A stretch of 40,000 bases of DNA from an uncultured Thermoleophilaceae bacterium. Its GTDB lineage: Bacteria > Actinomycetota > Thermoleophilia > Solirubrobacterales > Thermoleophilaceae. Under the pieces are notes generated by a model. That model worked only from the letters and a program-made list of their open reading frames with translations, was not told the origin of the DNA and made no database searches. Each line of letters begins with the position of its first letter. Position 1 is the first letter of the stretch. The DNA lies in assembly GCA_963772945.1 (NCBI GenBank), contig CAVYZJ010000005.1, positions 674,596 to 714,595 of the forward strand, in the 5' to 3' direction. Position numbers and translations under genes: made by a program. Shown piece by piece: positions 5,616 to 35,266 of the stretch.

Positions 5616-6128
5616 CTAGCCCTCGACGCCGCCGGCGAACGGGTGCCGCGCCTCGGCCACCCCTTCGATCACGGTGCTCGCGGCGGGCTCGTTGGCCATC
5701 GCGCGCGCGATCGACTCCTTGGTGGCCTCGTAGTTGTAGTCGAAGATCTTCTTGTCGTCCTCGGCCAGCCAGTGGATGAAGACGCCCACGATGATGCAGA
5801 GGTCGTCGGCATCCGACTCGGAGATCACCCCGTCGCGCACCGAGTCGACGACGGCCCGTGCCACCGCCGCCTGGGCGGGCCCGAACATCTGCCCGACCTG
5901 CTTCTCACCCCTGATCGTCACCTTGTTCGCCATGAGCGTGTCGGGCTTCGCGGGCAGGTTGGGCGCGACCACGGCCAGCAGGTTCGTGTGGCCCTCCTTC
6001 TGGTTCAGGAGTGCAGCGGCGAACGCTTGGCCGACCGGCCCGTCCTTGGATCCGACCAATAGATCGATGTGAGCGACCTCGTTGCCGTCGCCGACAAGGG
6101 ACTCCCCGACCGACATGGACATGGCCAT
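5616..6128 (-). CDS. fae: Formaldehyde-activating enzyme (5,6,7,8-tetrahydromethanopterin hydro-lyase)
   Basis: The 170-aa protein has characteristic Fae segments [30 protein letters not shown] and [11 protein letters not shown] strong SD AAGGGAGGGG (minus strand, 6135-6144) lies 6 nt upstream of ATG 6128. Confidence 0.92.
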
Positions 6129-6239
6129 CTAATTCCCCTCCCTTGGTGGTTCTCTCAGATTCGCGCGAAGGCTATCGCTACGGAGGCGGCCGGCGCAGGA
6201 CGGCTCGCCGGTCCCGCGTGGATATGCTCCGGCGCGCGG
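6129..6239. promoter_or_regulatory. Divergent control region between the fae operon (leftward) and the fhcBADC operon (rightward)
   Basis: This 111-nt non-coding gap is the largest within nt 1300-24000. Both flanking operons must initiate here. It contains the fae SD. Only weak -10-like hexamers are present (e.g. TAGCCT on the minus strand, TATGCT on the plus strand), so no promoter position is asserted. Confidence 0.4.
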
Positions 6240-7475
6240 ATGGCTGAGCACCTGGCGACCTGTGCCGGCTGCGGATGTGGATGTGACGACATCGAGGTCG
6301 CGGTAGCGGCCGGGGTGCTCGAGCGCGTGAGCCACACCTGCCCGATCGGCGACGCATGGTTCGCCGAGCGGACGGCCGAAGCGCCCGCGGTCGCCCGCGT
6401 CGACGGCGAGGAGGTGGACTTCACCGATGCGGTCGAGGCCGCGGCCGCGATCCTGGGCGATGCCCGGCTGCCGCTCGTTTGCGGCCTAGGCCAGACCGAT
6501 GTTGAGAGCCAGCGCGCGGCCGTGGCGCTGGCCGAGGCGATCGGCGGGGTGATCGATCCGGCGGGGGCCGGAGACGCCGGTGCGGCCTCGCAGACGATCG
6601 GTCTCAGCACGGCGACCTTCGGCGATGTTCGCGACCGCGCCGAGCTCGTCCTCGTCTGGCGGGCCGACCCGGCCGCCTCCCATCCCCGCCTGCTTCCGCG
6701 CCTGCGACTCGACCGCGCCGGGCGCGCAGGGCGCACGCTGGTGGTCATCGACGCTCACCGCACCGCAACCGCCGACGAGGCCGACGAGTTCATAGAGCTG
6801 CCGCCCGAGCTCGAGTTCGAGGCGAAGTGGGCCATGCGCGCGCTGGTGCGCGATGTCCCGCTCGACCGCGAGCTCGCGGCGCAGCTGCCGCTGGACGCCC
6901 TGGAGCAGCTCGCGGGCCGCCTCCGCGCGTGTCGCTACGGGGCGCTGCTGCACGGGGACGCGGGGTATGCGAACGCCCTGGCACTGCTCACGCTCGTGCG
7001 CGACCTGGCGGGCATCACGCACGTCGTCGCGCTGCCGCTGCGCCAGGACGGCAACGCGCGGGGCGCCGAGGACGTGCTCGCCTGGCAGACGGGATACCCG
7101 GCGGCCGTGAGCTTCGCGCGCGGGCATCCCCGCGCGCAGCCGGGGGAGTTCAGCGCCACCGGCCTGCTGGAGCGCGGTGAGCCGGACGCGGCGCTGGTCG
7201 TCGGCTTCGACGCGCTCTCCCACCTCCCGCCACGGGCCGCCGACCACCTGCGCCGGATCCCCACGATCGTCGTCGACCCGCGCGCCACCGAGACCGCAGC
7301 GGTGGCCCGAGTCGCGTTCGCGACGGCCGCGGCCGGGGTGCACCACGAAGGGACCGCCCATCGTATGGACGGAGTGCCGGTGTCCCTTCACCAGCCGCTG
7401 ACGTCCGACCGCGTGGGGGACGAGCAGGTGCTCGCCGCGATCGAGGCAGGCATCACCGGCGCAGGGGAGACCTAG
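6240..7475 (+). CDS. fhcB: Formyltransferase/hydrolase complex subunit B (formylmethanofuran dehydrogenase subunit B homologue)
   Basis: The N-terminal Cys cluster MAEHLATCAGCGCGCDD is typical of FwdB/FhcB. It is followed by fhcA, fhcD and fhcC. The track ORF (6069) was trimmed to the first ATG, at 6240. Confidence 0.8.
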   Translation: MAEHLATCAGCGCGCDDIEVAVAAGVLERVSHTCPIGDAWFAERTAEAPAVARVDGEEVDFTDAVEAAAAILGDARLPLVCGLGQTDVESQRAAVALAEAIGGVIDPAGAGDAGAASQTIGLSTATFGDVRDRAELVLVWRADPAASHPRLLPRLRLDRAGRAGRTLVVIDAHRTATADEADEFIELPPELEFEAKWAMRALVRDVPLDRELAAQLPLDALEQLAGRLRACRYGALLHGDAGYANALALLTLVRDLAGITHVVALPLRQDGNARGAEDVLAWQTGYPAAVSFARGHPRAQPGEFSATGLLERGEPDAALVVGFDALSHLPPRAADHLRRIPTIVVDPRATETAAVARVAFATAAAGVHHEGTAHRMDGVPVSLHQPLTSDRVGDEQVLAAIEAGITGAGET

Positions 7476-7481
7476 CGCGGC

Positions 7482-9131
7482 ATGCTGCGCATCGCGCAGG
7501 GGCGTGTCTACGACCCCGCCAACGGAGTCGACGGCGACGTGCGCGACGTCTGCCTCGACGGCGGCAGGGTGGTCTCGGAGCTGCCGTCGCACGCCCCGCG
7601 CATCGATGCCCGCGGCATGGTCGTGATGCCGGGCGGGGTGGACATCCACTCCCACATCGCCGGGCCGAAGGTCAACGCGGCACGCAAGCTCACGCCCGAG
7701 GAGCACCGGGGGGACGTGCTCGACCGCACGGCGATCATGCGCTCGGGAACCGGCGGAACGGTGCCGTCGACCTTTGTGACGGGCTACCGCTACGCGCTCC
7801 TGGGCTACACCACCGTCGTTGACGCCGCCACCCCGCCGCTTGCTGCGCGCCACACGCTCGCCGAGCTGCGCGATACGCCGATCATCGACGCGGCGTTCCT
7901 CGTGCTGATGGGCAACAACCTGCCGATGTTCGAGCTCATCCGCGATGGCGGAAGCGGCTCGGTGACCGAGGCGGTGGCCTGGTGGCTGGAGGCGACCGCG
8001 GGCTACGGCGTCAAGCTCGTCAACCCGGGCGGGGTCGAGATGTGGAAGCACGGAAACCGCAACGTGACGTCGCTCGACGACGAGGTGGAGGGGCTGGGCG
8101 TCACGCCGCGCCGGGTGATAGAGGCGATCGCCACGTCCGTGGACGAGTTGGGTCTCCCACACCCCGTCCACGTCCACTGCAACAACCTCGGCGTGTCGGG
8201 CAACGTCCGCACCACCTTGGACACGCTCGACGCGCTGGAGGGCAGGCGGGCGCACCTCGCCCACCTCCAGTTCCACGCCTACGGCGGGACGCCGGGCAAG
8301 CGCCCCCGCTCGCGTGCGCCGGAGCTGGCCGAGCACCTCGACGCACACCCGGAGCACAGCGCCGACATCGGCCAGGTGATGTTCGGGCCCGCGACGACGA
8401 TGACCGCCGACGCCCCCGTCTCCGCACTGCTCCGCGAGGTCACCGGCGGCAAGTGGGTGAACGCCGACCTCGAGGCGGAGACCGGCTGCGGGATAGTGCC
8501 CCTCGCCTACCGCGAGAAGAACTACGTCCATGCGCTGCAGTGGGCCATCGGCCTGGAGCTTTTCCTGCTCAGCCGCGATCCCTGGCGGGTCGTGCTCTCC
8601 ACCGACCATCCCAACGGCGGCTCCTTTCTGAGCTATCCGCGGCTCATCCGCCTGCTGATGGATCGCGAGTTCCGAAACGAGCAGATCGGGCGCGTCAACC
8701 AGAAGGCGATCCGCCGCACGGTGCTCAAGGACGACCTCGAGCGCGAGTACACGCTCGGGGAGATCGCGATCATCACCCGCGCCGGACCCGCCAGGCTGCT
8801 CGGGCTGGCCGGCAAGGGCCACCTCGGCGTCGGCGCTGACGCGGACGTGACGGTCTATGCCGAACACGAGGACCGCGAGCAGATGTTCGCCACCCCGCGT
8901 TACGTCATCAAGGGCGGGCGGGTGATCGTCGAGGAGGGTGAGCTGCGCGAGGCTCCTGCCGGGGATCTCCTCCGCGTAGGGGCGGAACACGACCAGGAGA
9001 TCGAGCGCACCCTGCGACCCCTGTTCGAGGAGCACTACAGCGTGCAGCTCGCGAACTACCCGGTGCACGAGCAGTGGCTGCTGGAGCCCGCCCGCAGGAT
9101 CTCCGCCGGGCGCAACGGGAGCGGCCGATGA
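7482..9131 (+). CDS. fhcA: Formyltransferase/hydrolase complex subunit A (amidohydrolase-fold, FwdA homologue)
   Basis: The 549-aa protein has the metal-binding motif GGVDIHSHIAGPKVN and segments HVHCNNLG and LSTDHPNGG, typical of FwdA/FhcA. ATG 7482 lies 6 nt after the fhcB stop. Confidence 0.9.
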   Translation: MLRIAQGRVYDPANGVDGDVRDVCLDGGRVVSELPSHAPRIDARGMVVMPGGVDIHSHIAGPKVNAARKLTPEEHRGDVLDRTAIMRSGTGGTVPSTFVTGYRYALLGYTTVVDAATPPLAARHTLAELRDTPIIDAAFLVLMGNNLPMFELIRDGGSGSVTEAVAWWLEATAGYGVKLVNPGGVEMWKHGNRNVTSLDDEVEGLGVTPRRVIEAIATSVDELGLPHPVHVHCNNLGVSGNVRTTLDTLDALEGRRAHLAHLQFHAYGGTPGKRPRSRAPELAEHLDAHPEHSADIGQVMFGPATTMTADAPVSALLREVTGGKWVNADLEAETGCGIVPLAYREKNYVHALQWAIGLELFLLSRDPWRVVLSTDHPNGGSFLSYPRLIRLLMDREFRNEQIGRVNQKAIRRTVLKDDLEREYTLGEIAIITRAGPARLLGLAGKGHLGVGADADVTVYAEHEDREQMFATPRYVIKGGRVIVEEGELREAPAGDLLRVGAEHDQEIERTLRPLFEEHYSVQLANYPVHEQWLLEPARRISAGRNGSGR

Positions 9132-10030
9132 GGCTGGGTGACACCGAGGTCGTCGACACCTTCGCCGAGGCCTTCCCGATGTGGGGAGCGCGGATCATCA
9201 TCACCGCGGAGACGCCCGCCTGGGCGCACGAGGCCGCGCGCTCGCTCACCGGCTTCGCCACGTCGGTGATCGGCTGCAAGTGCGAGGCCGGCATCGAGCG
9301 CGAGCTCGATTCCGCCGAGACGCCCGACGGCCGGCCCGGCGCCAGCGCGCTGCTCTTCGCCAACGATCGCGAGGGGCTCGCCAAGCGGCTCGTGGAGCGC
9401 GTCGGCCAGAGCGTGCTGACCTGCCCGACAACGGCCTGCTTCAGCGGGCTGGACACCGACGAGACCGTCGACGTCGGCGGCCAGCTGCGCTTCTTCGGCG
9501 ACGGCTACCAGGCCAGCAAGCTGCTCGATGGGCGCCGCTACTGGCGCGTGCCGGTGATGGAGGGCGAGTTCCTGGTCGAGGAGCGCTTCGCCGTCGCCGA
9601 GGGAGTGGCCGGCGGCAACATCATCATTCTCGGCCACGACGCCGCCGGAACACTGCGGGCGGCGGAAGCGGCGGCCGCCGCGATGCGCAGCGTGCGCGAC
9701 GTGATCCTGCCCTTCCCGGGCGGTATCGCGCGCAGCGGCAGCAAGGTCGGCTCCCGCTACAGCGGCTTGATGGCCTCGACCAACGAGGCGCTGTGCCCCA
9801 CCCTGCGGGCTCAGGTCCCGCACACCGACGTGCCGCCGGACGTGGGCTCGGTGCTGGAGATCGTGATCGACGGCCTGACCCTCGAGGCCGTGAGCGACGC
9901 CATGGCGACAGGCCTCGAGGCCGCCGTCGAGGCGGGGGCCAGTGGTGTGACCGCCGGCAACTACGGAGGCGACCTTGGGCCGCACCACATCGAGCTGCGG
10001 GACCTCGTTCCCGGCCTGCGAGACCAATGA
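9128..10030 (+). CDS. fhcD: Formylmethanofuran:tetrahydromethanopterin N-formyltransferase (Ftr / Fhc subunit D)
   Basis: Ftr segments are DTFAEAFPMWGARIIITA, GFATSVIGCKCEAGIE and GGNIIILG. ATG 9128 overlaps the fhcA stop (ATGA). The track ORF start 9074 was trimmed. Confidence 0.9.
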   Translation: MRLGDTEVVDTFAEAFPMWGARIIITAETPAWAHEAARSLTGFATSVIGCKCEAGIERELDSAETPDGRPGASALLFANDREGLAKRLVERVGQSVLTCPTTACFSGLDTDETVDVGGQLRFFGDGYQASKLLDGRRYWRVPVMEGEFLVEERFAVAEGVAGGNIIILGHDAAGTLRAAEAAAAAMRSVRDVILPFPGGIARSGSKVGSRYSGLMASTNEALCPTLRAQVPHTDVPPDVGSVLEIVIDGLTLEAVSDAMATGLEAAVEAGASGVTAGNYGGDLGPHHIELRDLVPGLRDQ

Positions 10031-17930: not shown

Positions 17931-18508
17931 TCGCTTCCCAATGCGACGCGCACGTGCCTCCGCACGAGCTCCATCGCCTCGAGCTCGCGCGGCCCGGCCG
18001 TCTTGTCGACCAGCACCTGGAGGCGCTCCAGGTCCGCGTGGATCTCGGCAGGCGGGAGGCGGCGCACGCGCGACGCGATGATCGATGCCTCGAGCACCGC
18101 GTGACGCGCCCGGTTGAACCCGAGGAACTCACGCCCGGTCCCCTGCCCGACGACGCGCGTGGTCACCCGCGCGCGCGGCCCACTCGCTTCGATCTCCTCG
18201 ACCTCGACCTCGCGCCAGGAACAGGCGTCCGCCAACACCGCGCCGTCGATCGCCGCTGCGGACCGCGTGGGCGGGCGCGGATCGCCGAGCGCCGCCTGCG
18301 TGAAGAGCAGGATGTCGTCGGTGAGGTGGACCACCGCCGCCCCTGTCGCCTGCAGGTTGCGCAGCGTCCGCGTCGGGCGGTAGGGCTTGATGACGATGAT
18401 CTCGTCGCCCCACTCCACCCCCATCGCGGCGCAGTTGACCGTGCCGTCCGGGTTGATGGTCGTGGTTACCGTCTCGACGATCGCGGCCCCGGGCGGGCGC
18501 GCGCTCAT
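17927..18508 (-). CDS. DUF447-family protein (split-barrel, flavin-reductase-like fold); conserved unknown of H4MPT clusters
   Basis: IVETVTTTINPDGTVNCAAMGV and VIKPYRPTRTLRNL match the DUF447 pattern as I recall it from archaea and methylotrophs. ATG 18508 overlaps the mch stop (ATGA). Confidence 0.65.
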   Translation of the reverse strand: MSARPPGAAIVETVTTTINPDGTVNCAAMGVEWGDEIIVIKPYRPTRTLRNLQATGAAVVHLTDDILLFTQAALGDPRPPTRSAAAIDGAVLADACSWREVEVEEIEASGPRARVTTRVVGQGTGREFLGFNRARHAVLEASIIASRVRRLPPAEIHADLERLQVLVDKTAGPRELEAMELVRRHVRVALGSE

Positions 18509-19455
18509 CCCCTGAAGGACCGCTCGAGGACGCCGACGTCAACGGCCCCGGCGTGAAAGCTGCGCCCGCTCGACACGCTCGTCAGGCGCACCTCGGCCGG
18601 GCTGAAGAGCAGCGGGTCGATCTCGTAGAAGTCGCCGCCGGCTTGCTCGAGTACGCGCGCGAAGGGTTCGCCATGGTCCCGCGAGGCGGACGCGGGCAGG
18701 CGCGGCACGATCGACTCGAGCTCCTCGTCGGGGGCATCGACGCTGAGCTCCACCTGGCCGCCGTAGAGGACGGCGTCGTTGGTGCGACCGATCGCCTCGC
18801 CGTCGTCTCGGGCGACCGGCGGGAGCGGACAGCTCCCGAAACCGCTCACCACTCGCCCGACGTCGAAGTCGAGCTCGTGGAGCTTGTGCAGCGCGGTCTC
18901 GACCACGCGCGCGGCGATCTGAACCCCGCCGGCCAGGCTGGCGGTCGGCGCGAACAGCAGCGTCAGGTCCCCTGCCGTGACACCGGCGCGCTCCGCCACA
19001 TACTCGGCGAGCGGTTCCGGTGGCGGCTCGCGCGCCTCGAGGCACAGCGTCGCGCTCTGCGCCCGCTCGTCGACGTCGAGATCGTCGTAGAGGTCCTCGG
19101 CCCGGATCAAGGCGCGGCCCGGCCCGCTGGCCATCGCGAAGTAGTCGTCCCGGTCCAACTTCCAGCCCGCGTACTGAGAGGCCAGACAGGCAAGCGCCGG
19201 CCGATCGGTCACAACCGTGACCCCGGGAAGCCAGCGGCCCTCGAGCACCAACGGGACGAACGACACCCAGCCCATGCCACCCATGCAGATCTGGGCGAAG
19301 CGGCGGCCGGCCTCGAAGCCACCGGCGACCGCGCTGCCGCAGTCGATCAGGCGCGTGCCGTTCGGGAGCGTCGTGACCTCCACACGCAGGGCGTCGGCCT
19401 CGGCGGCCAGGCGGTCGGCGAGCTCATGTGCGCGATCGTTTAGCGAGGGGGTCAC
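18505..19455 (-). CDS. mch: Methenyltetrahydromethanopterin cyclohydrolase
   Basis: The 316-aa protein has Mch-typical segments ACLASQYAGW, ASGPGRAL and GRTNDAVLYGG. GTG 19455 overlaps the upstream stop (GTGA). Confidence 0.9.
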   Translation of the reverse strand: MTPSLNDRAHELADRLAAEADALRVEVTTLPNGTRLIDCGSAVAGGFEAGRRFAQICMGGMGWVSFVPLVLEGRWLPGVTVVTDRPALACLASQYAGWKLDRDDYFAMASGPGRALIRAEDLYDDLDVDERAQSATLCLEAREPPPEPLAEYVAERAGVTAGDLTLLFAPTASLAGGVQIAARVVETALHKLHELDFDVGRVVSGFGSCPLPPVARDDGEAIGRTNDAVLYGGQVELSVDAPDEELESIVPRLPASASRDHGEPFARVLEQAGGDFYEIDPLLFSPAEVRLTSVSSGRSFHAGAVDVGVLERSFRG

Positions 19456-21493: not shown

Positions 21494-21505
21494 CGTATAG
21501 CTGAG

Positions 21506-24075: not shown

Positions 24076-24152
24076 CCGATTTCCGGGCTTTCATCGACCG
24101 CGGCTACCTGTTAGTGTCGCGCCCCGTCATAGGACCAAGAGGGAGGAGTCGC

Positions 24153-24587
24153 GTGGCCGATATTGCGGAGGCCTTGGACAGGCAGAACGGGGCGACGCTG
24201 GGTCGAATGCTCGGGCGCGGAACCATCGGAGAGGCCGAGGAGTCGGGCGGCACGATGCGTGCCACGGTGCGGATCCCGGAGGACGAGCTGGTCTATGAGC
24301 CCGGAGTACTCGTCCTGCCCCACGGGGGCGTGCTCGAGCTCACGCTCATCAACGACGACAAGAACACGCACTGCGCTGTCCTGCCGAGCAATGGGGACAC
24401 CCAGTTCATCTGGCTGGTCAACCACTCAAAGGGCACGGCAACTCTCGAGCTCGACGGGCCAGGGTACTACTGGTACGGCTCCACGACCGGCAACGACGAG
24501 GGCCGGGGCCTCACCGGCGCGATCGTTGTGAGCGGTGACGTACCGGACGAGGCTCGCCTCGACCGCCCGCCCCAACCCCAGCCGTAG
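24153..24587 (+). CDS. Small soluble cupredoxin-like protein lacking the canonical copper ligands; PQQ-dehydrogenase-associated (MSMEG_3727-like by recollection)
   Basis: SD GGGAGGAG (24141-24148) lies 4 nt upstream of GTG 24153. The beta-sandwich pattern is VLVLPHGGVLELTLINDDKNTHC ... GPGYYWYGSTTGNDEGRGLTGAIVV. It sits immediately upstream of the PQQ dehydrogenase on the same strand. Confidence 0.6.
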   Translation: MADIAEALDRQNGATLGRMLGRGTIGEAEESGGTMRATVRIPEDELVYEPGVLVLPHGGVLELTLINDDKNTHCAVLPSNGDTQFIWLVNHSKGTATLELDGPGYYWYGSTTGNDEGRGLTGAIVVSGDVPDEARLDRPPQPQP

Positions 24588-24623
24588 ACCGCCCGCCACG
24601 CTCACCGTCGAAAGGAGTACTCG

Positions 24624-26318
24624 ATGGCAACCGAGTACGTAGACGCAGGAAGCGCCATCCCCTACGCAACCCTGAGCACGTCGGTCGGCAAGGCGCCGCC
24701 GGTCGCCCAGGGTGTCACCTACGAGCGGATCTTGGGCGCCCGTGACGAACCGAACAACTGGCTGACCTATTACGGCGCCTACAACGGGCAGCGCTACAGC
24801 GCGCTCGACCAGATCAACGCGGAGAACGTCGGGCAACTCACTCCGCAGTGGGTGTTCCAGGCCGGCAATACCGCACTGCGCTCGGGCGCGACGACGTACG
24901 CGTGGGAGGCCTCGCCGCTCGTCGTGGACGGAGTCATGTTCGTCTCCGGCTGGGACGGCCAGTGCTGGGCCCTCGACGCGACGAACGGGCAGGAGCTGTG
25001 GCGCTACAGGCACGCGTCCCCGTTCGACGTGTCGCTGTGCTGCGGCAACGTCAACCGCGGGGTCGCCGTCGCCGAGGGGAAGGTCTTCATGACCACCCTC
25101 AACGCTCATGTGATCGCGCTCGACGCCGAGACCGGCAAGAAGATCTGGGACAAGCCGTTCGGCGATGTGCGGGCCGGCGAGAGCGCCACCGTCGCTCCCC
25201 TGGTCGTGAAGGACATGGTCATCGTCGGGAGCTCCGGCGGCGAGTTCGGGGTGCGCGGCCACACCGACGCGTTCAATCGCGAGACCGGCGAGCACGTGTG
25301 GCGGTGCTACATGATTCCGAAGCCCGGAGAGCCGGGCTCCGACACCTGGCCCGCGGACGGCGAGGCGTGGCAGCGGGGCGGCGCGAACTGTTGGGTCACG
25401 CCTACCTATGACCCGGACCTGAACCTCCTGTACTACGGGACCGGCAATCCGTGTCCCGACTTCGACGGAGGGGTCCGTGAGGGCGACAACCTCTTCACCG
25501 ATTCCGGTGTCGCCGTGGACGCCGACACCGGCGAGATCAAGTCGCACTTCCAGTACACCCCGCACGACCTGTGGGACTACGACTCCGTGATGGAGCACCT
25601 CCTGTTCGACCTCGATGGGCAGAAGCTGGCGGCCCACTTCGACAAGAACGGGTTCCTCTACATCCTGGATCGCACGGATATGTCGCCGGTCCGGGTGGCG
25701 CCGTTCGTCGACCGCATCGATTGGGGCGAGGTCGACGAGAAGGGCAACGTGACGCCGAAGGTCTACCCCGACAAGGAGGGCGACCCGGTGCACTTCTGGC
25801 CGGGCCCGGCCGGCGCCAAGGAGTGGACGCACGCGTGCTACAGCCCGGATACCGAGCTGCTGTACGTCCCGGTGCAGGACGTGGGCGCGACAGCCACGCG
25901 GCGGCGCAGGGAGTTCAAGGAGAGCATCCCGTACTGGGGCGCGGGCGTCGCCGTGGACGGCGACGACCAGACCGGGTACGTGAGCGCCTACGACCCGCGT
26001 ACGGGCCAGGAGCGCTGGCGCTGGACCAGCCCAAAGGACCTGTGCATGTGCTCGTCGCTGCTGGCCACGGGTGGCAACCTCGTGTGGGGAGGCGAGCCCA
26101 GCGGGGAGTTCAACGCGTGGAACGCCGAGAGCGGTGACCTGCTGTGGCAGTTCCAGTGCGGCAGCGGCCACCACTCGAGCCCGTCGACCTACAGCGTCGA
26201 CGGACGGCAGTACGTCGTCGCGCCGGCCGGCTGGGGCGGTTGGGCCGAGGGATTCCTGCCCAAGATGCTCGGATCGTCCCACGGCAGCGCGCTGTTCGCC
26301 TTCGCACTGCCGGAGTAA
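24624..26318 (+). CDS. PQQ-dependent dehydrogenase, methanol/ethanol family, XoxF-like (predicted lanthanide type)
   Basis: The 564-aa protein has the vicinal Cys pair in SLCCGNVNRG, metal Glu in GESATVAPL, metal Asn in GGANCW, and catalytic plus extra Asp in HDLWDYD. It also has repeated propeller W motifs. SD AAAGGAG lies 6 nt upstream of the ATG. Confidence 0.92.
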   Translation: MATEYVDAGSAIPYATLSTSVGKAPPVAQGVTYERILGARDEPNNWLTYYGAYNGQRYSALDQINAENVGQLTPQWVFQAGNTALRSGATTYAWEASPLVVDGVMFVSGWDGQCWALDATNGQELWRYRHASPFDVSLCCGNVNRGVAVAEGKVFMTTLNAHVIALDAETGKKIWDKPFGDVRAGESATVAPLVVKDMVIVGSSGGEFGVRGHTDAFNRETGEHVWRCYMIPKPGEPGSDTWPADGEAWQRGGANCWVTPTYDPDLNLLYYGTGNPCPDFDGGVREGDNLFTDSGVAVDADTGEIKSHFQYTPHDLWDYDSVMEHLLFDLDGQKLAAHFDKNGFLYILDRTDMSPVRVAPFVDRIDWGEVDEKGNVTPKVYPDKEGDPVHFWPGPAGAKEWTHACYSPDTELLYVPVQDVGATATRRRREFKESIPYWGAGVAVDGDDQTGYVSAYDPRTGQERWRWTSPKDLCMCSSLLATGGNLVWGGEPSGEFNAWNAESGDLLWQFQCGSGHHSSPSTYSVDGRQYVVAPAGWGGWAEGFLPKMLGSSHGSALFAFALPE

Positions 26319-26393: not shown

Positions 26394-27511
26394 TCAGTCG
26401 GCCTCGACCGGAGCGCCTCCGTACACGATGTAGCTGATCACCCAGTACGCGATGTACAGACCCAGCAGGGCGTAGCCGTGCCATCGCTTCAGCTGGCCGG
26501 TGTAGAGGAAGCAGCGCGGCGACGGCGGTGATGACGACGAGCGCCGGCAGGTGCCACTTGAGCACGTTCGAGGCGACCGTGACGCTGCCGCCCGGCGACG
26601 ACGATGATGCCGAGCTTCCCCGTGACCGTGAAGATGAGGCTCCCGATGACGTTGCCGACCCCGATCTCCGGCACACCCCTGCGGATGGGCTCCACGGTCA
26701 GAAAGAGGTCTTCGATCGTCAGCAGGGCGGTGATGATGGTCGCACCGAACACGGTGCCCTCGAGCCCGTACTCCTCGAGGATGCCCTCGGTTCCGGTGCT
26801 CACGGTCGCGGCGCCGATGACGATCCCGGCGAGCGCGATGACCGCCAGCCCGAGACTAGGCCAGCCAGGGTGCCTGAGCCCGGTGCCGAACGGCATCATC
26901 GCGGCGACGGCCTCCTCCCGGTCCGGGACCGGCGAGTGCTCCTCGGCCTGCAGTTCCGCCGCCTCGTCATAGACCTCCAGGTTGCGGAACGTCGGGGTCT
27001 CCCGCTTGACCTCCCGGACGGTGACGTACGCGACGAACAGCGCGAACAGCCCGATCAGCACCACCCCCTCAGCGACGCTGATCGGTTCGGCCAGCGCGAA
27101 CACGAGCATTATGAGCGGCGCGGCGGCGAAGATGACGATGTAGTCGCGCGGAACGTTCACCTTGGTCGGCGTGAGGATGGCGCCGAGCGCGAGCACGACT
27201 CCGCTGAACGCGACCGCCGTCCCCAACACCAAGCCAAGCGCGACACCCTCGAGCTCTTCGAGCTGCAGCGCGACTCCCAGAACGATGTCGTCGAACTCGA
27301 TCCCCGTGAACACGATCGCGAGCAGGAAGAGAGAGATCTTGAGCCCGCTCGCCGCCCCGACCAGGGCGTCGATCAGTCGCTCGGCGCTGTACACCAACAG
27401 CACCGCTCCGGAGATGAAGACGAATACGGACTCCAACCAGATCCCCCTCTTGTGCGCGCGGCACCGCGGCGTCCACCGGGCCCCCAAGCGCGGCCGACCT
27501 GCTTCCGTCAC
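26394..27511 (-). pseudogene. Na+/Ca2+ exchanger (CaCA) superfamily membrane protein with two apparent frameshifts in the 3' end
   Basis: The body is polytopic with alpha-repeat-like segments (FTGIEFDDIVLGV; VPEIGVGNVIGSLIF). After GKLGIIVV the sensible sequence continues in a second frame (GGSVTVASNVLKWHLPALVVITAVAALL). It then continues in a third frame (FLYTGQLKRWHGYALLGLYIAYWVISYIVYGGAPVEAD, stop 26394-26396). The likely start is TTG 27436 (MESVFVFISG...) rather than GTG 27511. Confidence 0.55.
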
Positions 27512-28193: not shown

Positions 28194-28214
28194 CGCGCAG
28201 TTCCGGGTTGCGCG
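28194..28214. promoter_or_regulatory. Inverted repeat CGCGCA-N9-TGCGCG in the ChrB-like/ATPase divergent intergenic region (candidate operator)
   Basis: The arms are a perfect 6-bp match (28194-28199 and 28209-28214). They lie in the 60-nt gap between the two divergent start codons. Function is inferred only from position. Confidence 0.25.
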
Positions 28215-28234
28215 GTCGACGTATCATTCGTTTC

Positions 28235-30757
28235 ATGGCGAGCGCAACGCCGGCGTCGCGTCCCGCCGATGGGGCGCCGGCCGTCCCGGTCCACGCAGAG
28301 CCGCTCGCGGCCCTGTGGGAGCGGGCCGGCAGTCGCCCGGGCGGGCTGACGTCCGAGGAGGTCGAGCAGCGGCGCGGCACAGCGGCGGTGCGGACCGAGG
28401 GCAGCCAGACGATGGCGGTTCTCGGGGAGGTGGTCGAGGCGGTCATGGAGCCCCTCCAGCTGCTGCTGGTCGCGGTCGGCGTGCTCTCGGCGATCTTCGG
28501 GGAGCTGCGCGACGCGATCGCGATCTTCGCGATCATCGCGCTGGTCAGCGCGGTCGAGGCGATCTCCGAGGTGCGGGCCAAGCGCGCGCTTCGGGCGCTG
28601 CGCGACCTCAGCGCCCCCAACGCGCTCGTTCGGCGCGCTGGCTCCGTGGCCGCAATCCCGGTCGATACGCTCGTCATCGGCGACGTGCTGCTCGTCGAGG
28701 CCGGCAGCGTCGTGGCCGCCGACGCCCGCGTCGTCGAGGCCGACGGCCTGGCCACGGATGAGTCGCGGCTGACGGGCGAGCCTGTGGCGGCCGCCAAGGG
28801 ACCCGACCCGGTGGCTGCCGACGCGCCGCTCGCCGAGCGGTCCTCGGTGCTGCACGCCGGCAGTGCCGTCGTGTCCGGAGCCGGCGAGGGCCTCGTCGTC
28901 GCTGTGGGCCCGAACACCGAGATCGGGCGTCTTGGGCGGCTCGTCGCGGAGGCCAGGGAGCCGCCCACGCCGCTTCAACGTGCGATGGCCGAGCTGGCGC
29001 GTGCGGCGCTCATCGTGGCGGTTACGGCGTGCGTGGTCGTGCCCCTCGTCGGCGTGCTCCGCGGCCAGCCCGCCCGCGAGATGCTGCTCAACGGGCTGAC
29101 GCTCGCGTTCGCCACGATCCCCGAGGAGCTGCCGATCCTCGTCACCGTGCTGGTGGCGATCGGCGGCCTGCGCCTGGCGCAGCACGGCGTTCTCCTGCGC
29201 CGGCTGCGCGCCGCCGAGGCCGTGGGCGCGATGACCGTGCTGCTCGCCGACAAGACCGGGACGCTGACCGAGAACCGGCTGCTGATCGAGCGCATCGACG
29301 GCGACCGCGAGCACGTGCTGACCGTCGCCGCCGCGGCGCACGGAACGGCGGCCGCACAGGACCCGGTCGATCGCGCGCTGGTGGAGGCCGCCGACGAACG
29401 CGTGTCGAGCGAGCGGCCGGCGCGGAATCCGTTCGACCCGGTGCGCCGGCGCGAGAGCGCGGTGTGGTGCGAGGCCGACGGCGCGTGGGTGGCTGTGAAG
29501 GGCGCACCGGAAGCCGTGCTCGAGGCGTGCGCGATGTCCGAGGCGGACCGGGCATCCGTGCTCGAGCGCGTCGGGCGGCTCGCGGACGACGGGCTGCGGG
29601 TGATCGCCGTGGCGGAGCGTCGCGTCGCCGCGGTTCCCGGCGGTGCCGCCGACGCCGAGACGGACCTCGCATTCGTCGGGCTGGCCGCCTTCCGCGATCC
29701 GTTGCGCCCCGGGGTGGGCGATGCCGTGGCCGAGCTCGCCCATGCGGGCGTGCGGACGATCGTCGTCAGCGGCGACCACCCCGAAACGGTGGCCGCGACC
29801 GCGCGCGAGGCCGGGGTCAACGTTCCCGAGGTCATGCACGGCGGCGCACCGCTCGACGCGCTCGACGACGACGAGCTCGCCGAGCGGCTGCGCGGCGAGG
29901 CCGTGATCGCCCGTGCCACGCCCGAGGACAAGCTGCGGCTCGTGCGGGTCCTCCAGGACAGCGGAGAGGCCGTCGCCGTCACCGGCGACGGCGTGAACGA
30001 CGCGCCCGCCCTCGCCGCGGCGAACGTCGGGATCGCGATGGGCGCGCGCGGGACCGATCTCGCCCGCGAGGCGTCCGATCTCGTCCTCGTCGACGACGCC
30101 TACCCGACGATCGTCGGCGCCGTCGAGGGCGGTCGCGGCCTGGCCTCCCAGCTCCGGCGGGCGGTCGCGTTCTACCTCGGCGCCAAGATCGCGCTCGTCG
30201 TGGTCATCGCCGTGCCGCTGGGGCTGGGGCTCCCCGCCCCGTTCCACCCGGTCCACATCGTCATCCTGGAGCTGTTCATGGACGTAGGCGCGTCGGTGGC
30301 CTTCGTCTCCGAGCCACCGGCGCCGGGCGCGATGGACCACCCCCCGCGCGATCCAGCGCGGCGGTTCCTCGACGACACGCAACTGTCCGCCATCGCACTA
30401 ACGGCCGTGGCGCTTACGGCCGCGGTTCTTCCGACGTTCCTCTTCGTCCACGCCCGGTGGGGCACCGACATGGCGATCGCGGCCGCCGTGGCCGGTTGGC
30501 TCGTCGCGAACGTGGCGATCGCGTGGACGCTGCGCGCCCGGCCGGGTCTGGCCTGGAGGAGCAACGTCGCGTTCCCGGCGTGGGCGCTGATCGCCGTCGC
30601 CAGCGCGGCGATGCTGTCCCTCACCGCGGCGGGGGCCACGCTCGGCGTGGACCCGCTCACCGCCGAAGCGGCGGGTATCACCGTCGGCGTCGCGGCGGCC
30701 GGGGTCGCCCTCGCCGCCGCAGCGCGCGTCGCGCTGTCGCTCTCCCGGCGTCTCTGA
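28235..30757 (+). CDS. Cation-transporting P-type ATPase, P2 (Ca2+/Mg2+-like) type
   Basis: Motifs present are the N-terminal cation-ATPase domain (LTSEEVEQRR), the A-domain TGE motif (ESRLTGEP), TM4 IPEELP, the phosphorylation site LADKTGTLT, and the hinge VTGDGVNDAPALAAANVGIAMG. I prefer ATG 28235 to the track TTG 28208. Confidence 0.9.
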   Translation: MASATPASRPADGAPAVPVHAEPLAALWERAGSRPGGLTSEEVEQRRGTAAVRTEGSQTMAVLGEVVEAVMEPLQLLLVAVGVLSAIFGELRDAIAIFAIIALVSAVEAISEVRAKRALRALRDLSAPNALVRRAGSVAAIPVDTLVIGDVLLVEAGSVVAADARVVEADGLATDESRLTGEPVAAAKGPDPVAADAPLAERSSVLHAGSAVVSGAGEGLVVAVGPNTEIGRLGRLVAEAREPPTPLQRAMAELARAALIVAVTACVVVPLVGVLRGQPAREMLLNGLTLAFATIPEELPILVTVLVAIGGLRLAQHGVLLRRLRAAEAVGAMTVLLADKTGTLTENRLLIERIDGDREHVLTVAAAAHGTAAAQDPVDRALVEAADERVSSERPARNPFDPVRRRESAVWCEADGAWVAVKGAPEAVLEACAMSEADRASVLERVGRLADDGLRVIAVAERRVAAVPGGAADAETDLAFVGLAAFRDPLRPGVGDAVAELAHAGVRTIVVSGDHPETVAATAREAGVNVPEVMHGGAPLDALDDDELAERLRGEAVIARATPEDKLRLVRVLQDSGEAVAVTGDGVNDAPALAAANVGIAMGARGTDLAREASDLVLVDDAYPTIVGAVEGGRGLASQLRRAVAFYLGAKIALVVVIAVPLGLGLPAPFHPVHIVILELFMDVGASVAFVSEPPAPGAMDHPPRDPARRFLDDTQLSAIALTAVALTAAVLPTFLFVHARWGTDMAIAAAVAGWLVANVAIAWTLRARPGLAWRSNVAFPAWALIAVASAAMLSLTAAGATLGVDPLTAEAAGITVGVAAAGVALAAAARVALSLSRRL

Positions 30758-30849: not shown

Positions 30850-30924
30850 ATGAAGTGGATCAAGCCTGAGTTCGAGATCATGGATCTCTGCACCGAGGTC
30901 ACCCTCTACCTGTACAACCGGTAG
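30850..30924 (+). CDS. pqqA: PQQ precursor peptide PqqA (24 aa)
   Basis: The peptide MKWIKPEFEIMDLCTEVTLYLYNR contains the conserved E-x3-Y cross-link pair (EVTLY) and the ...NR C-terminus. SD GAGGGAGG (30836-30843) lies 6 nt upstream of the ATG. It sits directly upstream of pqqB. It is not an ORF-track entry of its own, but it shares frame and stop (30924) with the 631-aa track ORF 29029..30924, which is spurious upstream. Confidence 0.88.
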   Translation: MKWIKPEFEIMDLCTEVTLYLYNR

Positions 30925-30966: not shown

Positions 30967-31875
30967 GTGGTGCTACACGTGCGAGTTCGAATTCTGGGCT
31001 CGGCCGCGGGCGGGGGGTTTCCGCAATGGAACTGCCATTGCGAAACGTGTGAGGCCGCGCGTGCCGGTGAAGGCGCGCGCCCTCGAACGCAGTCGTCGCT
31101 GGCAATTCGTGGCGGCGAGGGGCCGTGGTTTCTCGTAAACGCCTCGCCTGACGCGCGCCAGCAGCTCGAGGCGCTCGAACCGCAGCGGGCCGACGGTGTC
31201 CGCGCGCCGCCGATCGCAGGCGTGCTTCTGACCGACGCGGAGATCGACCACACAGCGGGGCTCCTGCTCCTGCGCGAGTCGGCGACGCCGGTGCGCGTGT
31301 TCGGCGCCGAGGCCGTCAAGCTGGCGCTGACGCGCGGGTACCCGGTGCTGACAATGCTCGAGCGCTATTGCGGGGCCGTGTGGGAAACGCTGGAACCGGA
31401 GCAGGCGAGACCGCTCGCGGGGTCGAGCCTTACGGTCGAGCCGTTCGAGACCGGCGGCGATGCGCCGCGTTACCTGGAAGGGTCGGACGTCGAGCTTGAG
31501 GCGAGCGGGTTTGTGTTTCGCGACACAGCGAGCGGCGGCGTCGTGACCTACGTCCCCGGTCTGGCCCGGTTGGACAATGACGTGCTGGCCCGGTTCGCCG
31601 AAAGCGACCTCGTGCTCGTCGACGGGACCTTCTGGCGCGACGACGAGCTCGCCCGGCTGGGCATCTCGGAGCGCAGCGCCCATGACATGGGACATGTGCC
31701 GCTCTCGGGCCCCGGCGGGACGCTCGAGGCCCTCGAGGGGCTGGACGGACCGCGCAAGGTGCTGGTCCACATCAACAACACGAACCCGATTCTCCTCGAG
31801 GACTCCCCTGAGCGGGAGGCCGTGCTCCGGGCGGACGTCGAGGTTGCCTACGATGGCCTCGGGTTCGAGCTATGA
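30967..31875 (+). CDS. pqqB: PQQ biosynthesis protein B (metallo-beta-lactamase fold)
   Basis: ILGSAAGGGFPQWNCHCETCEAAR is the PqqB N-terminal signature, and IDHTAGLLLLRE follows later. The start is GTG, among 30967/30970/30979. Confidence 0.9.
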   Translation: MVLHVRVRILGSAAGGGFPQWNCHCETCEAARAGEGARPRTQSSLAIRGGEGPWFLVNASPDARQQLEALEPQRADGVRAPPIAGVLLTDAEIDHTAGLLLLRESATPVRVFGAEAVKLALTRGYPVLTMLERYCGAVWETLEPEQARPLAGSSLTVEPFETGGDAPRYLEGSDVELEASGFVFRDTASGGVVTYVPGLARLDNDVLARFAESDLVLVDGTFWRDDELARLGISERSAHDMGHVPLSGPGGTLEALEGLDGPRKVLVHINNTNPILLEDSPEREAVLRADVEVAYDGLGFEL

Positions 31876-32609
31876 CCGAGACCGCCACCAGACCGATGGG
31901 AGCGCGCGCCCCGTGGCCGCCCGAGGAGTTCATCGCTCACCTGCGCGCACAGGGGACGCGCTACCACAACCTGCACCCCTTCCACCGGCGAATGGACGCG
32001 GGGGAGCTCACACGCGAGGAGCTCCAGCGCTGGGTCGCGAACCGCTTCTACTACCAGAAGTGCATTCCCTTGAAGGACGCGGCGATCCTGGCGAATTGCC
32101 CGGTGATCGAGGTCCGGCGCGAGTGGGTAAGTCGCATCATCGACCACGACGGCACGACCGACGGCACGGGCGGCATCGAGTCGTGGCTGCGGCTCGGCGA
32201 GGCGCTCGGCCTCTCGCGAGAAGAGCTGATGTCGGAGCGGCGCGTACTTCCCGCCGTGCGCTACGCGGTTGACGCCTACGTGAACTTCGCCCGTCAGAAG
32301 CCCTGGATCGAGGCGGTTGCCTCGTCGCTCACCGAGCTCTTCGGGCCGGCCGCGATCCGTGTGCGGCTCGAGGCGCTGGAGCGTCACTACGAGTGGATCG
32401 ACCCCGCGGGGCTCGAGTACTTCCGCACGCGGCTGGTGCAGGCGCCACAGGACGCGCAGTACGCCCTCGACCTCACCGTCGAGCGCTGCCGGACGCGCGA
32501 GCAGCAGGACACTGCCGTCGCGGCGCTTCGCTTCAAGACCGAGATGCTGTGGGCGCAGCTCGAGGCCATCGAGCGCGGAGAAACACAGCCACCGGGGCCG
32601 GAGGGATGA
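31872..32609 (+). CDS. pqqC: Pyrroloquinoline-quinone synthase
   Basis: YHNLHPFHRRM, RFYYQKCIPLKDAAILANCP and YVNFAR are PqqC hallmarks. The ATG overlaps the pqqB stop (ATGA). Confidence 0.95.
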   Translation: MTETATRPMGARAPWPPEEFIAHLRAQGTRYHNLHPFHRRMDAGELTREELQRWVANRFYYQKCIPLKDAAILANCPVIEVRREWVSRIIDHDGTTDGTGGIESWLRLGEALGLSREELMSERRVLPAVRYAVDAYVNFARQKPWIEAVASSLTELFGPAAIRVRLEALERHYEWIDPAGLEYFRTRLVQAPQDAQYALDLTVERCRTREQQDTAVAALRFKTEMLWAQLEAIERGETQPPGPEG

Positions 32610-32869
32610 CTCATCCCCGTCTCGTAACCGGCGCGCGACTTCGGTATGACGAGGTCCGCGAGGAGCACCTGCTGCTGGTTCCCGAAGGTGCGGTGCGGCT
32701 CAACCCCACCGCCGCGGAGGTGCTCGGGCTCTGCGACGGGGCGCGCTCGCTCGACGACATCGTCCGTGCCCTCTCCGAGCGCTACGAGGGCTTCGATCTG
32801 CGCAGCGACGTTGAAGAGCTGATCGACGGCATGACCCAGAGGGGACTCGTGGTCGATGCAGCAGCGTAG
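32606..32869 (+). CDS. pqqD: PqqA-binding chaperone PqqD
   Basis: The 87-aa protein has HLLLVPEGAVRLNPTAAEVLGLCDGARSLDDIV. ATG 32606 overlaps the pqqC stop (ATGA). The track ORF was trimmed from 32393. Confidence 0.9.
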   Translation: MTHPRLVTGARLRYDEVREEHLLLVPEGAVRLNPTAAEVLGLCDGARSLDDIVRALSERYEGFDLRSDVEELIDGMTQRGLVVDAAA

Positions 32870-33953
32870 TCCGGCCGTCCTGACCGCCGAGCTCTCGTAC
32901 CAGTGCCCGCTTCACTGCCCGTACTGCTCGAACCCGGTCGACATCGGCGGCGAGAAGTACCGCAACGAGCTCGAGACCGAGCACTGGATACGGACGTTCA
33001 GGGAGGCGCGTGGCCTAGGCGTCATTCAGCTGGGGCTGTCAGGTGGCGAGCCGATGCTGCGCCGCGATCTGACCGAGCTCTGCGCGGGCGCACGCGAAGC
33101 CGGTCTCTATTCGTCGCTCATCACCGCCGGAACGCTCTTCACACGCGCGCGCGCGGAGGCGCTGAAGACGGCCGGGCTCGACCACGTGCAGATCTCGATC
33201 CAGAGCCCGAACGCCGAGGACAACGACCGGATCGCCGGAAACCGATCGTTCGACAAGAAGATCGCGGCCGCTCGCCTGGCGACGGAGCTCGACTTCCCGC
33301 TGACGATCAACTGCGTCCTGCACCGGCAGAACCTGGATCGGATCGAGGAGGTGCTCGACCTCACGCTCGATCTCGGAGCGCAGCGGCTCGAGCTGGCGAA
33401 CACCCAGTACTACGGCTGGGCGGTCCCCAACCAGGAGGCGCTCATGCCCACCTGGGACCAGCTCCGTCGCGCGGAGGAAGCGGTCCAGCGCTTTCGTGAG
33501 CGCGTCGGCCCCAAGCTCGATGTCCTGTGGGTCCTCCCGGATTACTACGAGGACCTGCCGAAGCCCTGCATGGGCGGCTGGGGCTCGACCGCGATCGTGG
33601 TCGCTCCGAACGGCGACGTGCTGCCCTGCCAGGCGGCGTCGACGATCCCGGGGCTCGAGTTCGCCAACGTCCGCGAGCATTCACTGGAGTGGATCTGGAA
33701 CGAGTCCGACGCTTTCGAGCGCTTCAGGGGGACGGACTGGATGCAGGAGCCGTGCCGAACGTGCCCGCTCGGGCGACAGGAGGTTGACTTCGGCGGCTGC
33801 CGCTGCCAGGCGCTGCGGCTCACGGGCGACGCGGCGGCCACGGATCCGGTCTGCCGGTTCTCGCCGCATCACGACCGAGTCGTCTCGGCACGCGAGTCGG
33901 CGCAGACCGACGAGTTCGTATATCGGACGATGAAGCGCCCGGTGGGCGTCTGA
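32856..33953 (+). CDS. pqqE: Radical SAM/SPASM enzyme PqqE
   Basis: The CxxxCxxC cluster is in YQCPLHCPYCSNP. GLSGGEPMLR follows. The Cys-rich SPASM tail contains PCMGGWG, LPCQAAS, PCRTCP and GGCRCQA. It overlaps pqqD by 14 nt. Confidence 0.95.
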   Translation: MQQRSPAVLTAELSYQCPLHCPYCSNPVDIGGEKYRNELETEHWIRTFREARGLGVIQLGLSGGEPMLRRDLTELCAGAREAGLYSSLITAGTLFTRARAEALKTAGLDHVQISIQSPNAEDNDRIAGNRSFDKKIAAARLATELDFPLTINCVLHRQNLDRIEEVLDLTLDLGAQRLELANTQYYGWAVPNQEALMPTWDQLRRAEEAVQRFRERVGPKLDVLWVLPDYYEDLPKPCMGGWGSTAIVVAPNGDVLPCQAASTIPGLEFANVREHSLEWIWNESDAFERFRGTDWMQEPCRTCPLGRQEVDFGGCRCQALRLTGDAAATDPVCRFSPHHDRVVSARESAQTDEFVYRTMKRPVGV

Positions 33954-35013: not shown

Positions 35014-35129
35014 CCAGAACAGCGTAGAGAGCGTCCGAGGCCGCAATCCTCACCCGAATCTCGAAGAGATGACGCCACTTTGTCGCGATCGCTTGACGGC
35101 TGGCCAAAGTTGGGTTACCAAGGTATGTA

Positions 35130-35192
35130 GGCCGGATCCTGCTTCCGTCAGATCGCAACCTCGGGATCGCAGGAGCGCAGGGGGATCCGGCC
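35130..35192. repeat. 10-bp perfect inverted repeat GGCCGGATCC / GGATCCGGCC enclosing 43 nt with an internal GATCGCA direct repeat
   Basis: The arms are at 35130-35139 and 35183-35192. TCCTGC (35137-35142) can alternatively pair with GCAGGA (35169-35174). GATCGCA occurs at 35151-35157 and 35165-35171. The element lies in the 253-nt, comparatively AT-richer gap upstream of cslA. Confidence 0.4.
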
Positions 35193-35266
35193 AGGCGGCA
35201 GTCGTAAGCCCGTGCCCGCTCCAGGCCCCTGGCGGGACGTGCTCGGCTCGACCGAACAACTTTCCC

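Follow-up and report, generated by a model that had tools for sequence, protein, structure and literature searches.

A signal-less, lanthanide-type PQQ alcohol dehydrogenase paired with a predicted copper-less cupredoxin in Thermoleophilia

This study concerns a 40,000-nucleotide stretch of DNA (hereafter the window) from the ~70% GC genome of an uncultured member of the Thermoleophilia (contig CAVYZJ010000005.1) and, within it, a gene for a pyrroloquinoline quinone (PQQ)-dependent alcohol dehydrogenase (ADH). Judged by its sequence, ADH is a catalytically intact alcohol dehydrogenase of the lanthanide type. Its gene stands second in a conserved module of two, and the enzyme belongs to the PQQ methanol/ethanol dehydrogenase family but departs from two norms of that family, export and a cytochrome c partner. 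The first gene of the module encodes a small protein of the MSMEG_3727 family. Relative to the literature consulted, two things are new: the recognition of the MSMEG_3727-family protein as a cupredoxin, which in Gemmatimonadota is a blue-copper lipoprotein, and the finding that in an abundant actinobacterial clade, comprising Thermoleophilia and a cultured Streptomyces, the copper site has disappeared along with the signal peptides of both proteins. Because the export signal is absent and the partner has lost its copper site, ADH may work inside the cell, and we give roughly even chances to what we consider the most likely reading, that it is a cytoplasmic lanthanide-type PQQ alcohol dehydrogenase with the copper-less cupredoxin as an obligate subunit. 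The module consists of the following elements.

24114..24587, + strand: MSMEG_3727-family PQQ-associated protein, 157 aa, predicted cupredoxin fold, signal-less, directly 5' of ADH
24610-24617, + strand: Shine-Dalgarno sequence GAAAGGAG, 6 nt 5' of the ADH ATG, read directly from the sequence
24624..26318, + strand: PQQ-dependent alcohol dehydrogenase (ADH), 564 aa, lanthanide-type ligand set, signal-less

Profile scores place ADH in its family without difficulty, since it matches Pfam PF01011 at 2e-82 (278 bits, threshold 26.7) and NCBIfam TIGR03075 at 582 bits, above the curated cut-off of 480. A preliminary description of this DNA had called the protein XoxF-like, a label that is loose. Among solved structures the best relative is PedH, an enzyme that depends on lanthanides (6ZCW; E 1e-104, 350 bits), followed by quinohaemoprotein alcohol dehydrogenases, XoxF SolV (4MAE; 4e-82, 280 bits), ExaA and MxaF (245 bits), and by these bit scores ADH would fall outside XoxF sensu stricto (XoxF1-5) and is nearer to PedH/ExaF than to XoxF.

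The hallmark residues of the family are all present, namely the vicinal Cys-Cys pair, the PQQ-stacking Trp (W257), the catalytic Asp and the Glu and Asn metal ligands, and C139, C140, E207, W257, N275, D318 and D320 are invariant in the 117 clade members compared. The equivalent SolV residue numbers were obtained by counting along the 4MAE alignment: E172 (GGEFGVRG), N256 (GTSNP) and D299/D301 (WDYD).

25038..25043, + strand: codons of the vicinal Cys139-Cys140 pair, invariant in 117/117 clade members
25242..25244, + strand: codon of Glu207 (GGEFGVRG), metal ligand, equivalent to SolV E172
25446..25448, + strand: codon of Asn275 (GTGNP), metal ligand, equivalent to SolV N256
25575..25583, + strand: codons of Asp318-Tyr319-Asp320, the catalytic Asp and the lanthanide-type Asp, placed by the SolV/PedH alignment

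All four lanthanide-type ligands (E207, N275, D318 and D320) align with those of XoxF SolV and PedH. The register of the D-x-D motif is confirmed because D318 and D320 share columns with D299 and D301 of SolV (D318-Y319-D320 against D299-Y300-D301 in 4MAE) and likewise with the D-F-D of PedH (6ZCW). The preliminary description had proposed that this second Asp, two residues past the catalytic one, occupies the lanthanide-coordinating position of XoxF and PedH, and the alignment bears it out; the motifs it quoted (SLCCGNVNRG, GESATVAPL, GGANCW and HDLWDYD) are also all found in ADH. It had listed GESAT and GGANCW as hallmarks, and conserved family motifs they are, but the metal ligands are instead E207 and N275. 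Relative to an exported sister enzyme, introduced below, the signal-less clade has gained four near-invariant cysteines (C256, C277, C476 and C512): C256 adjoins the PQQ-stacking Trp, C277 lies two residues past the Asn ligand (and is Ala in Streptomyces) and C476 stands where XoxF and PedH have a PQQ-contact Trp.

Is ADH exported, as its family would predict? Neither ADH nor its partner carries a general secretory (Sec), twin-arginine (Tat) or lipoprotein signal in any of >190 sequences of the clade. The maximal 11-residue hydropathy of the ADH N-terminus is 0.93, compared with 1.8-3.6 in almost all of ~110 other full-length 50%-cluster representatives, and neither an RR motif nor a lipobox was found in it. 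Two positive controls encoded in the window, a GlxA-like protein and a Na/Ca exchanger, gave 2.65 and 2.81, and the values for ADH and its upstream neighbour (0.25) group with those of Fae, Mch and PqqB. The ADH start codon is an ATG preceded at a distance of 36 nt by an in-frame TAG (24585-24587), the stop codon of the gene 5' of ADH, and those 36 nt contain zero in-frame ATG, GTG or TTG codons. Moreover, ~70 orthologues from named Thermoleophilia genomes share a common start, MATE(E)YVDAG, which is also conserved in the cultured Streptomyces sp. NBC_01483 (complete genome), and because all of these begin alike, the absence of a signal is a property of the clade and not the product of a mis-called start. 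What had been noted for this one gene, that it lacks a cleavable signal and cannot be extended to a longer reading frame, thus holds clade-wide.

An N-terminal alignment indicates how this state arose. The actinobacterial ADHs start 4-5 residues after the lipobox Cys of the sister clade, and the ADH N-terminus EYVDAGSAIPYATLS aligns with the mature segment DFPVTQESVPFTALN of the sister enzyme; judged from this alignment, the sister-type lipoprotein signal is precisely deleted in the actinobacterial ADH. We rejected MATEYVDAG as a novel targeting signal, as it aligns with the mature N-terminus of exported sister enzymes. Sec, Tat and lipoprotein signals are absent from the conserved neighbours of the pair, and Tat hitchhiking on a neighbour was rejected, there being no conserved neighbour with a signal or an RR motif. 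Targeting to a microcompartment or encapsulin was rejected as well, since neither shell nor encapsulin genes turned up among the Pfam matches of the window and the N-terminus does not form an amphipathic helix.

The second departure from the family norm is the partner. A search of all six frames of the 40-kb window for CxxCH found no such motif, and none was found in real genes lying up to 10 kb from the pair in 80 related genomes; family scans together with the CxxCH search found neither XoxG nor XoxJ in the window; ADH has no dedicated c-type cytochrome nearby, and the previously noted absence of cytochrome cL, XoxJ and MxaI genes is confirmed. The further claim that the enzyme has no partner at all proved wrong, because the upstream gene (24114-24587) encodes a dedicated, curated one. 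Its product matches PF23509 at 1.7e-73 (246 bits, threshold 27) and TIGR04339 at 249 bits (cut-off 75), and profile and adjacency to the PQQ-ADH and pqq genes alike identify it as a member of the MSMEG_3727 family. The order partner then ADH is found in 77 of 80 related genome loci. In some Thermoleophilia metagenome-assembled genomes (MAGs) a second copy of the cupredoxin-ADH module is present on another contig (L008/L009; L024/L028).

A literature search returned no function assigned to the small MSMEG_3727-family protein, and no characterisation of MSMEG_3726/3727, TIGR04339, PF23509, Thermoleophilia XoxF or a Gram-positive lanthanide methanol dehydrogenase was found. A profile search of the partner against the PDB gave no significant match, and its fold was recognisable from structure alone. 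With close homologues only, AlphaFold2 (AF2) gave a mean predicted local distance difference test score (pLDDT) of 53, which rose to 78 when sister-clade sequences were added; in the latter model pLDDT is >90 for residues 40-120 and 67 over residues 121-130. The top Foldseek matches of this model, a cupredoxin beta-sandwich, are auracyanin (6KOL, 3.7e-7), the CuA domains of N2O-reductase and oxidase, Cupredoxin_1 and CupA, and on the strength of the model the partner is a cupredoxin by fold.

The type-1 copper site of this cupredoxin has been dismantled: H86 is kept, and S123, D128 and L133 stand in place of Cys, His and Met, a His/Ser/Asp/Leu set seen in 120 of 120 Thermoleophilia-type sequences, none of which has a signal. 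Because Cys, His and Met have become Ser, Asp and Leu and the signal is absent, the partner is not a classical blue-copper carrier. Its very strong conservation (~80% identity across the order) argues that it is under a precise function. C87 and H104, along with H70, are near-invariant in the Thermoleophilia type, and the positions of C87 and H104 are occupied by Ile/Met and by variable residues in the sister clade.

That sister clade belongs to the Gemmatimonadota. The nearest outgroup of ADH is the representative P0242 (59% identity; the next-best full-length representative reaches <=45%), which carries a lipoprotein signal (…GLVAGC), and the gene before it encodes a 184-aa MSMEG_3727-family member with its own lipobox. 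This 184-aa protein has a full type-1 copper site, with the His in VLHIAF and a Cys-x4-His-x4-Met arrangement in GCPVANHAGRGM, and reaches the Cu-oxidase_2 cut-off. Across Gemmatimonadota-type cupredoxins the His/Cys/His/Met set is present in 120/120 and a lipobox in ~105/120. Two further Gemmatimonadota loci have the same order of lipoprotein cupredoxin(s), lipoprotein ADH and DUF2231 membrane protein, with TonB receptors close by and pqq genes absent.

L085 8001-10868; L086 7393-10942; L081 2469-4816: Gemmatimonadota loci with 1-2 tandem lipoprotein type-1-copper cupredoxins, a lipoprotein PQQ-ADH and a His-containing DUF2231 protein

L086 additionally encodes a DUF2231-Rieske fusion. These loci may represent a complete periplasmic electron chain that depends on imported PQQ. 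Since the sister cupredoxin keeps a complete type-1 site, a blue-copper protein likely substitutes for cytochrome cL as acceptor in the Gemmatimonadota lineage. Other signal-bearing PQQ-ADH clades have cytochrome c genes adjacent, and the clades form a three-step series: a cytochrome c partner, an exported blue-copper partner, and a signal-less, copper-less partner.

The surroundings of the pair bear on both the substrate and the metal of ADH. Positions 1269-24075 of the window hold a complete tetrahydromethanopterin (H4MPT)/methanofuran-linked formaldehyde-oxidation island (Fae, MtdB-like, Mch, FhcA, FhcD and FhcB-like), and two cation transporter genes and pqqABCDE follow ADH.

5616..6128, - strand: Fae, formaldehyde-activating enzyme, predicted cytoplasmic sink for the ADH product; TIGR03126 243 bits (cut-off 118)
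6069..10030, + strand: fhcB-like, fhcA and fhcD, formyltransferase/hydrolase complex of the H4MPT pathway
18505..19455, - strand: Mch, methenyl-H4MPT cyclohydrolase; TIGR03120 388 bits (cut-off 229)
26489..27511, - strand: Na/Ca-exchanger-family membrane protein; PF01699; present in 4/80 loci
28208..30757, + strand: P-type cation ATPase, best matches Ca2+-type; present in 8/80 loci
30850..30924, + strand: pqqA, product MKWIKPEFEIMDLCTEVTLYLYNR; TIGR02107 25.4 bits (cut-off 20)
30967..31875, + strand: pqqB; TIGR02108 356 bits (cut-off 245)
31872..32609, + strand: pqqC; TIGR02111 319 bits (cut-off 240)
32606..32869, + strand: pqqD; TIGR03859 73.5 bits (cut-off 46)
32856..33953, + strand: pqqE; TIGR02109 503 bits (cut-off 381)

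PqqA-E, Fae, Mch, FhcA (TIGR03121, 690 bits) and FhcD (TIGR03119, 407 bits) all pass their equivalog cut-offs, and the FhcB-like protein falls just below its own (TIGR03129, 321.5 bits; cut-off 327.8). The cofactor biosynthesis genes of the island, for H4MPT and methanofuran, encode MfnB, DUF447, a GHMP kinase, an ATP-grasp protein, CitG-like and DHPS-like proteins, pterin-4a dehydratase, FolE2 and a 1055-aa PabA-PabB-like fusion. In ~50/80 loci pqq genes lie no more than 10 kb from the pair, and H4MPT genes do so in 30-43/80. The linkage to formaldehyde-oxidation genes suggests that ADH acts here as a methanol dehydrogenase.

The Na/Ca exchanger and P-type ATPase of the window were rejected as conserved partners in view of their low counts; the recurrent neighbour is instead an MntP-like (PF02659) membrane protein, encoded directly 3' of ADH in ~44/77 loci (L002-L080, ~2.2 kb after the partner start). 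Its two subfamilies are homologous (hhalign probability 95.7%), and in the window its slot is occupied by the exchanger and the Ca-type ATPase. The occurrence of three unrelated cation-efflux families in one slot suggests that metal trafficking is tied to ADH.

The locus in Streptomyces has the pair and pqq genes, and H4MPT genes are absent from it.

L084 6261-8501: Streptomyces locus, linear plasmid NZ_CP109439.1 of Streptomyces sp. NBC_01483

Directly 5' of this cupredoxin-ADH-pqqBCDE cluster lies a gene for a KatG-like catalase-peroxidase, recognised by sequence motifs in this single case, a neighbour that would be of interest if ADH leaks electrons to O2.

How, then, might the module of the signal-less clade function? 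We propose that in the ancestral or sister form, as in Gemmatimonadota, ADH and a type-1 blue-copper acceptor were both exported lipoproteins, and that in the actinobacterial clade both signal peptides were cleanly deleted and three of the four cupredoxin copper ligands replaced. Copper proteins are essentially absent from the cytoplasm, so the loss of the copper site fits a move to that compartment. ADH would then fold in the cytoplasm and gain PQQ and its metal there, where PQQ is made, it would oxidise methanol or another primary alcohol in the same compartment, and in this genome the resulting formaldehyde would be passed directly to Fae and the H4MPT pathway. The copper-less cupredoxin would be kept as an obligate subunit, either serving for docking or as an adaptor, or carrying a remodelled site.

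Several considerations weigh against this cytoplasmic proposal. The invariant vicinal Cys-Cys disulfide is strained and would be expected to be reduced in a reducing cytoplasm. The midpoint potential of PQQ, ~ +90 mV, is too positive for reduction of NAD+ or of the menaquinone pool of Actinomycetota, and no plausible cytoplasmic acceptor for a cofactor of that potential is evident in menaquinone-only organisms. Efflux-type cation genes recur beside ADH (the MntP-like gene in ~44/77 loci, the Na/Ca exchanger and P-type ATPase here), a recurrence that supply of metal to an enzyme beyond the membrane would explain no less well than cytoplasmic metal homeostasis. A role in methanol oxidation is not general, because the Streptomyces locus is without H4MPT genes. 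Lastly, we infer lanthanide use by ADH from the sequence signature only, and the absence of signals was judged with Kyte-Doolittle hydropathy (11-residue windows) and motif heuristics rather than SignalP.

Could the copper-less cupredoxin still accept electrons? It might do so through a relocated metal or thiol site composed of H86, C87, H104, D128 and E129, located at the 'northern' end of the beta-sandwich. Such a site would resemble the red copper of nitrosocyanin or bind a different metal, an explanation that we regard as possible but doubtful. It would account for the near-invariance of C87 and H104 solely in the signal-less clade and for the replacement, in the classical ligand loop, of the His ligand and the residue beside it by D128 and E129, and the strong conservation across the order again argues for a precise function. 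From the topology of the AF2 model, H86, C87, H104 and loop 124-132 would all lie at one end, that of the classical copper site; however, this clustering is drawn from strand topology and not from model coordinates, and confidence in the model falls over residues 121-130. Chemistry is also unfavourable, in that neighbouring residues such as H86 and C87 seldom bind one ion and the hard O-donors Asp, Glu and Ser are poor ligands for redox-active copper. We advance only tentatively the combined version, in which a cytoplasmic ADH retains its former acceptor rebuilt in copper-free form, the acceptor bearing either a thiol relay or a novel site of His, Cys, Asp and Glu, together with the clade-specific Cys256, Cys476 and Cys512 around the PQQ pocket. 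If true, this would constitute a previously unknown intracellular route for electrons from PQQ, and intracellular lanthanide enzymology in abundant soil monoderms.

A different explanation places ADH and its partner outside the cytoplasmic membrane, exported unconventionally after folding and PQQ loading in the cytoplasm, for instance by hitchhiking through Tat with a signal-bearing protein whose gene lies elsewhere, or by a secretion system yet to be discovered. Ca2+ or Ln3+ would then reach the enzyme through the cation exporters that recur beside ADH (MntP-like, Na/Ca exchanger and P-type ATPase). Export would agree with the location of the sister clade and of all characterised family members, with the invariance of the vicinal Cys pair and the presence of additional conserved clade cysteines that could form disulfides, and with thermodynamics, which favour high-potential acceptors on the outer face of the membrane. 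Nevertheless, we think it unlikely: both proteins are without any Sec, Tat or lipoprotein signal throughout the clade and so are their conserved neighbours, the ADH N-terminus corresponds to the mature segment of the sister enzyme and shows no new targeting motif, and the loss of copper ligands would be unexpected if the partner were still an extracytoplasmic electron carrier.

We also considered whether ADH uses Ca2+ or another cation in vivo, the D-x-D motif being inherited and undiagnostic in this lineage. Most of the 150 closest 50%-cluster representatives, with many uncharacterised clades among them, have D-x-D, and because of this the motif is unremarkable on its own and of limited discriminating power; in addition, the neighbouring transporters of the window are annotated as Ca2+-type. 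What makes such a switch improbable is that all four lanthanide-coordinating residues of SolV and PedH are kept and invariant and that PedH, the closest solved relative, is lanthanide-dependent. Furthermore, a preprint on XoxF1 and ExaF reports the extra Asp to be essential for lanthanide coordination and function (bioRxiv 10.1101/2020.02.25.964783). Finally, an artefact (wrong start codon, frameshift or pseudogene) is effectively refuted already, for although truncated or frameshifted orthologues occur among MAGs, the upstream in-frame stop ends the preceding gene, a strong Shine-Dalgarno sequence precedes the ATG, the start is identical in ~70 independent genomes and a complete Streptomyces genome, the GC content at third codon positions is 0.91 and the catalytic residues are all invariant.

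Comparison with known systems helps to define what is unusual about the module. With PedH of P. putida KT2440 and the ExaF type (6ZCW/6ZCV), ADH shares the eight-bladed PQQ propeller, the vicinal Cys pair, a single-subunit catalytic chain and the Glu/Asn/Asp/Asp ligand set in register. PedH, a periplasmic enzyme made with a Sec signal, delivers its electrons to a cytochrome c, whereas ADH has neither signal nor cytochrome and differs further in Lys341 for a PQQ-contact Arg, Cys476 for a PQQ-contact Trp and its dedicated cupredoxin-fold partner. XoxF (M. fumariolicum SolV, 4MAE) likewise belongs to TIGR03075 and has identical residues at D299/D301, E172 and N256, but its similarity to ADH is lower (280 bits, compared with 350 for PedH), and ADH is without XoxG and XoxJ and, by sequence, is not predicted to be periplasmic.

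For the partner, precedents come from two directions. Cupredoxins are established acceptors of quinoproteins, amicyanin with methylamine dehydrogenase and azurin with quinohaemoprotein ADH IIB, and the Gemmatimonadota arrangement follows the same logic, an exported PQQ-ADH gene adjoining that of an exported type-1 copper protein like mauC beside mauAB. The partner in the query clade differs from amicyanin and azurin in having Ser, Asp and Leu for Cys, His and Met, and no signal. CyoA, subunit II of quinol oxidase, has a cupredoxin domain without its former CuA site, and CupA (PDB 4F2E) is a Cu(I) chaperone with a cupredoxin fold; both show that this fold can be kept after its redox copper was lost or repurposed upon a change of partner, although their likeness to the protein described here is limited to the fold, with no sequence relationship. 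The arrangement itself has a counterpart in Mycolicibacterium smegmatis, whose pqq cassette likewise contains a lone PQQ-ADH (MSMEG_3726) together with a small 'PQQ-associated' protein (MSMEG_3727); the lone PQQ-ADH MSMEG_3726 within that cassette was described by Haft (Haft 2011, PMC3023750).

Why does the location of this enzyme matter? The clade is abundant: searches for the partner gene turned it up on 558 stretches from the set of species-representative genomes and among soil-metagenome proteins in their thousands. To our knowledge, PQQ alcohol dehydrogenases, including XoxF, ExaF and PedH, have been treated as strictly periplasmic. A recent survey did not expect XoxF in Gram-positive bacteria since it is periplasmic (PMC10875860). 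If ADH is cytoplasmic, this would change where cells use lanthanides and how reduced PQQ (PQQH2) is re-oxidised, as well as the accounting of the turnover of methanol and other alcohols by soil Actinomycetota. The sister-clade result has significance of its own, as it makes a blue-copper protein the likely natural acceptor of one PQQ-ADH lineage, and the paired loss of signals and copper ligands constitutes a natural experiment in which a redox module appears to change compartments. The presence of the module in cultured Streptomyces and in M. smegmatis makes the question directly testable.

Two further observations concern other parts of the window. In the formaldehyde-oxidation island the longest open reading frame for a short-chain dehydrogenase/reductase (SDR; 21041-22291, + strand) overlaps a CitG-like gene on the opposite strand (20612-21643), and because the SDR domain begins only near residue 166, the true start is probably ~500 nt further downstream. 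Beyond the pqq genes, positions 34880-38937 encode a family 2 glycosyltransferase (GT2; 712 aa) followed by the GlxA-like protein, a member of the galactose-oxidase family with a Tat-like N-terminus (MNGRRLFRG...), an arrangement that resembles the cslA-glxA pair of Streptomyces, here in Thermoleophilia.

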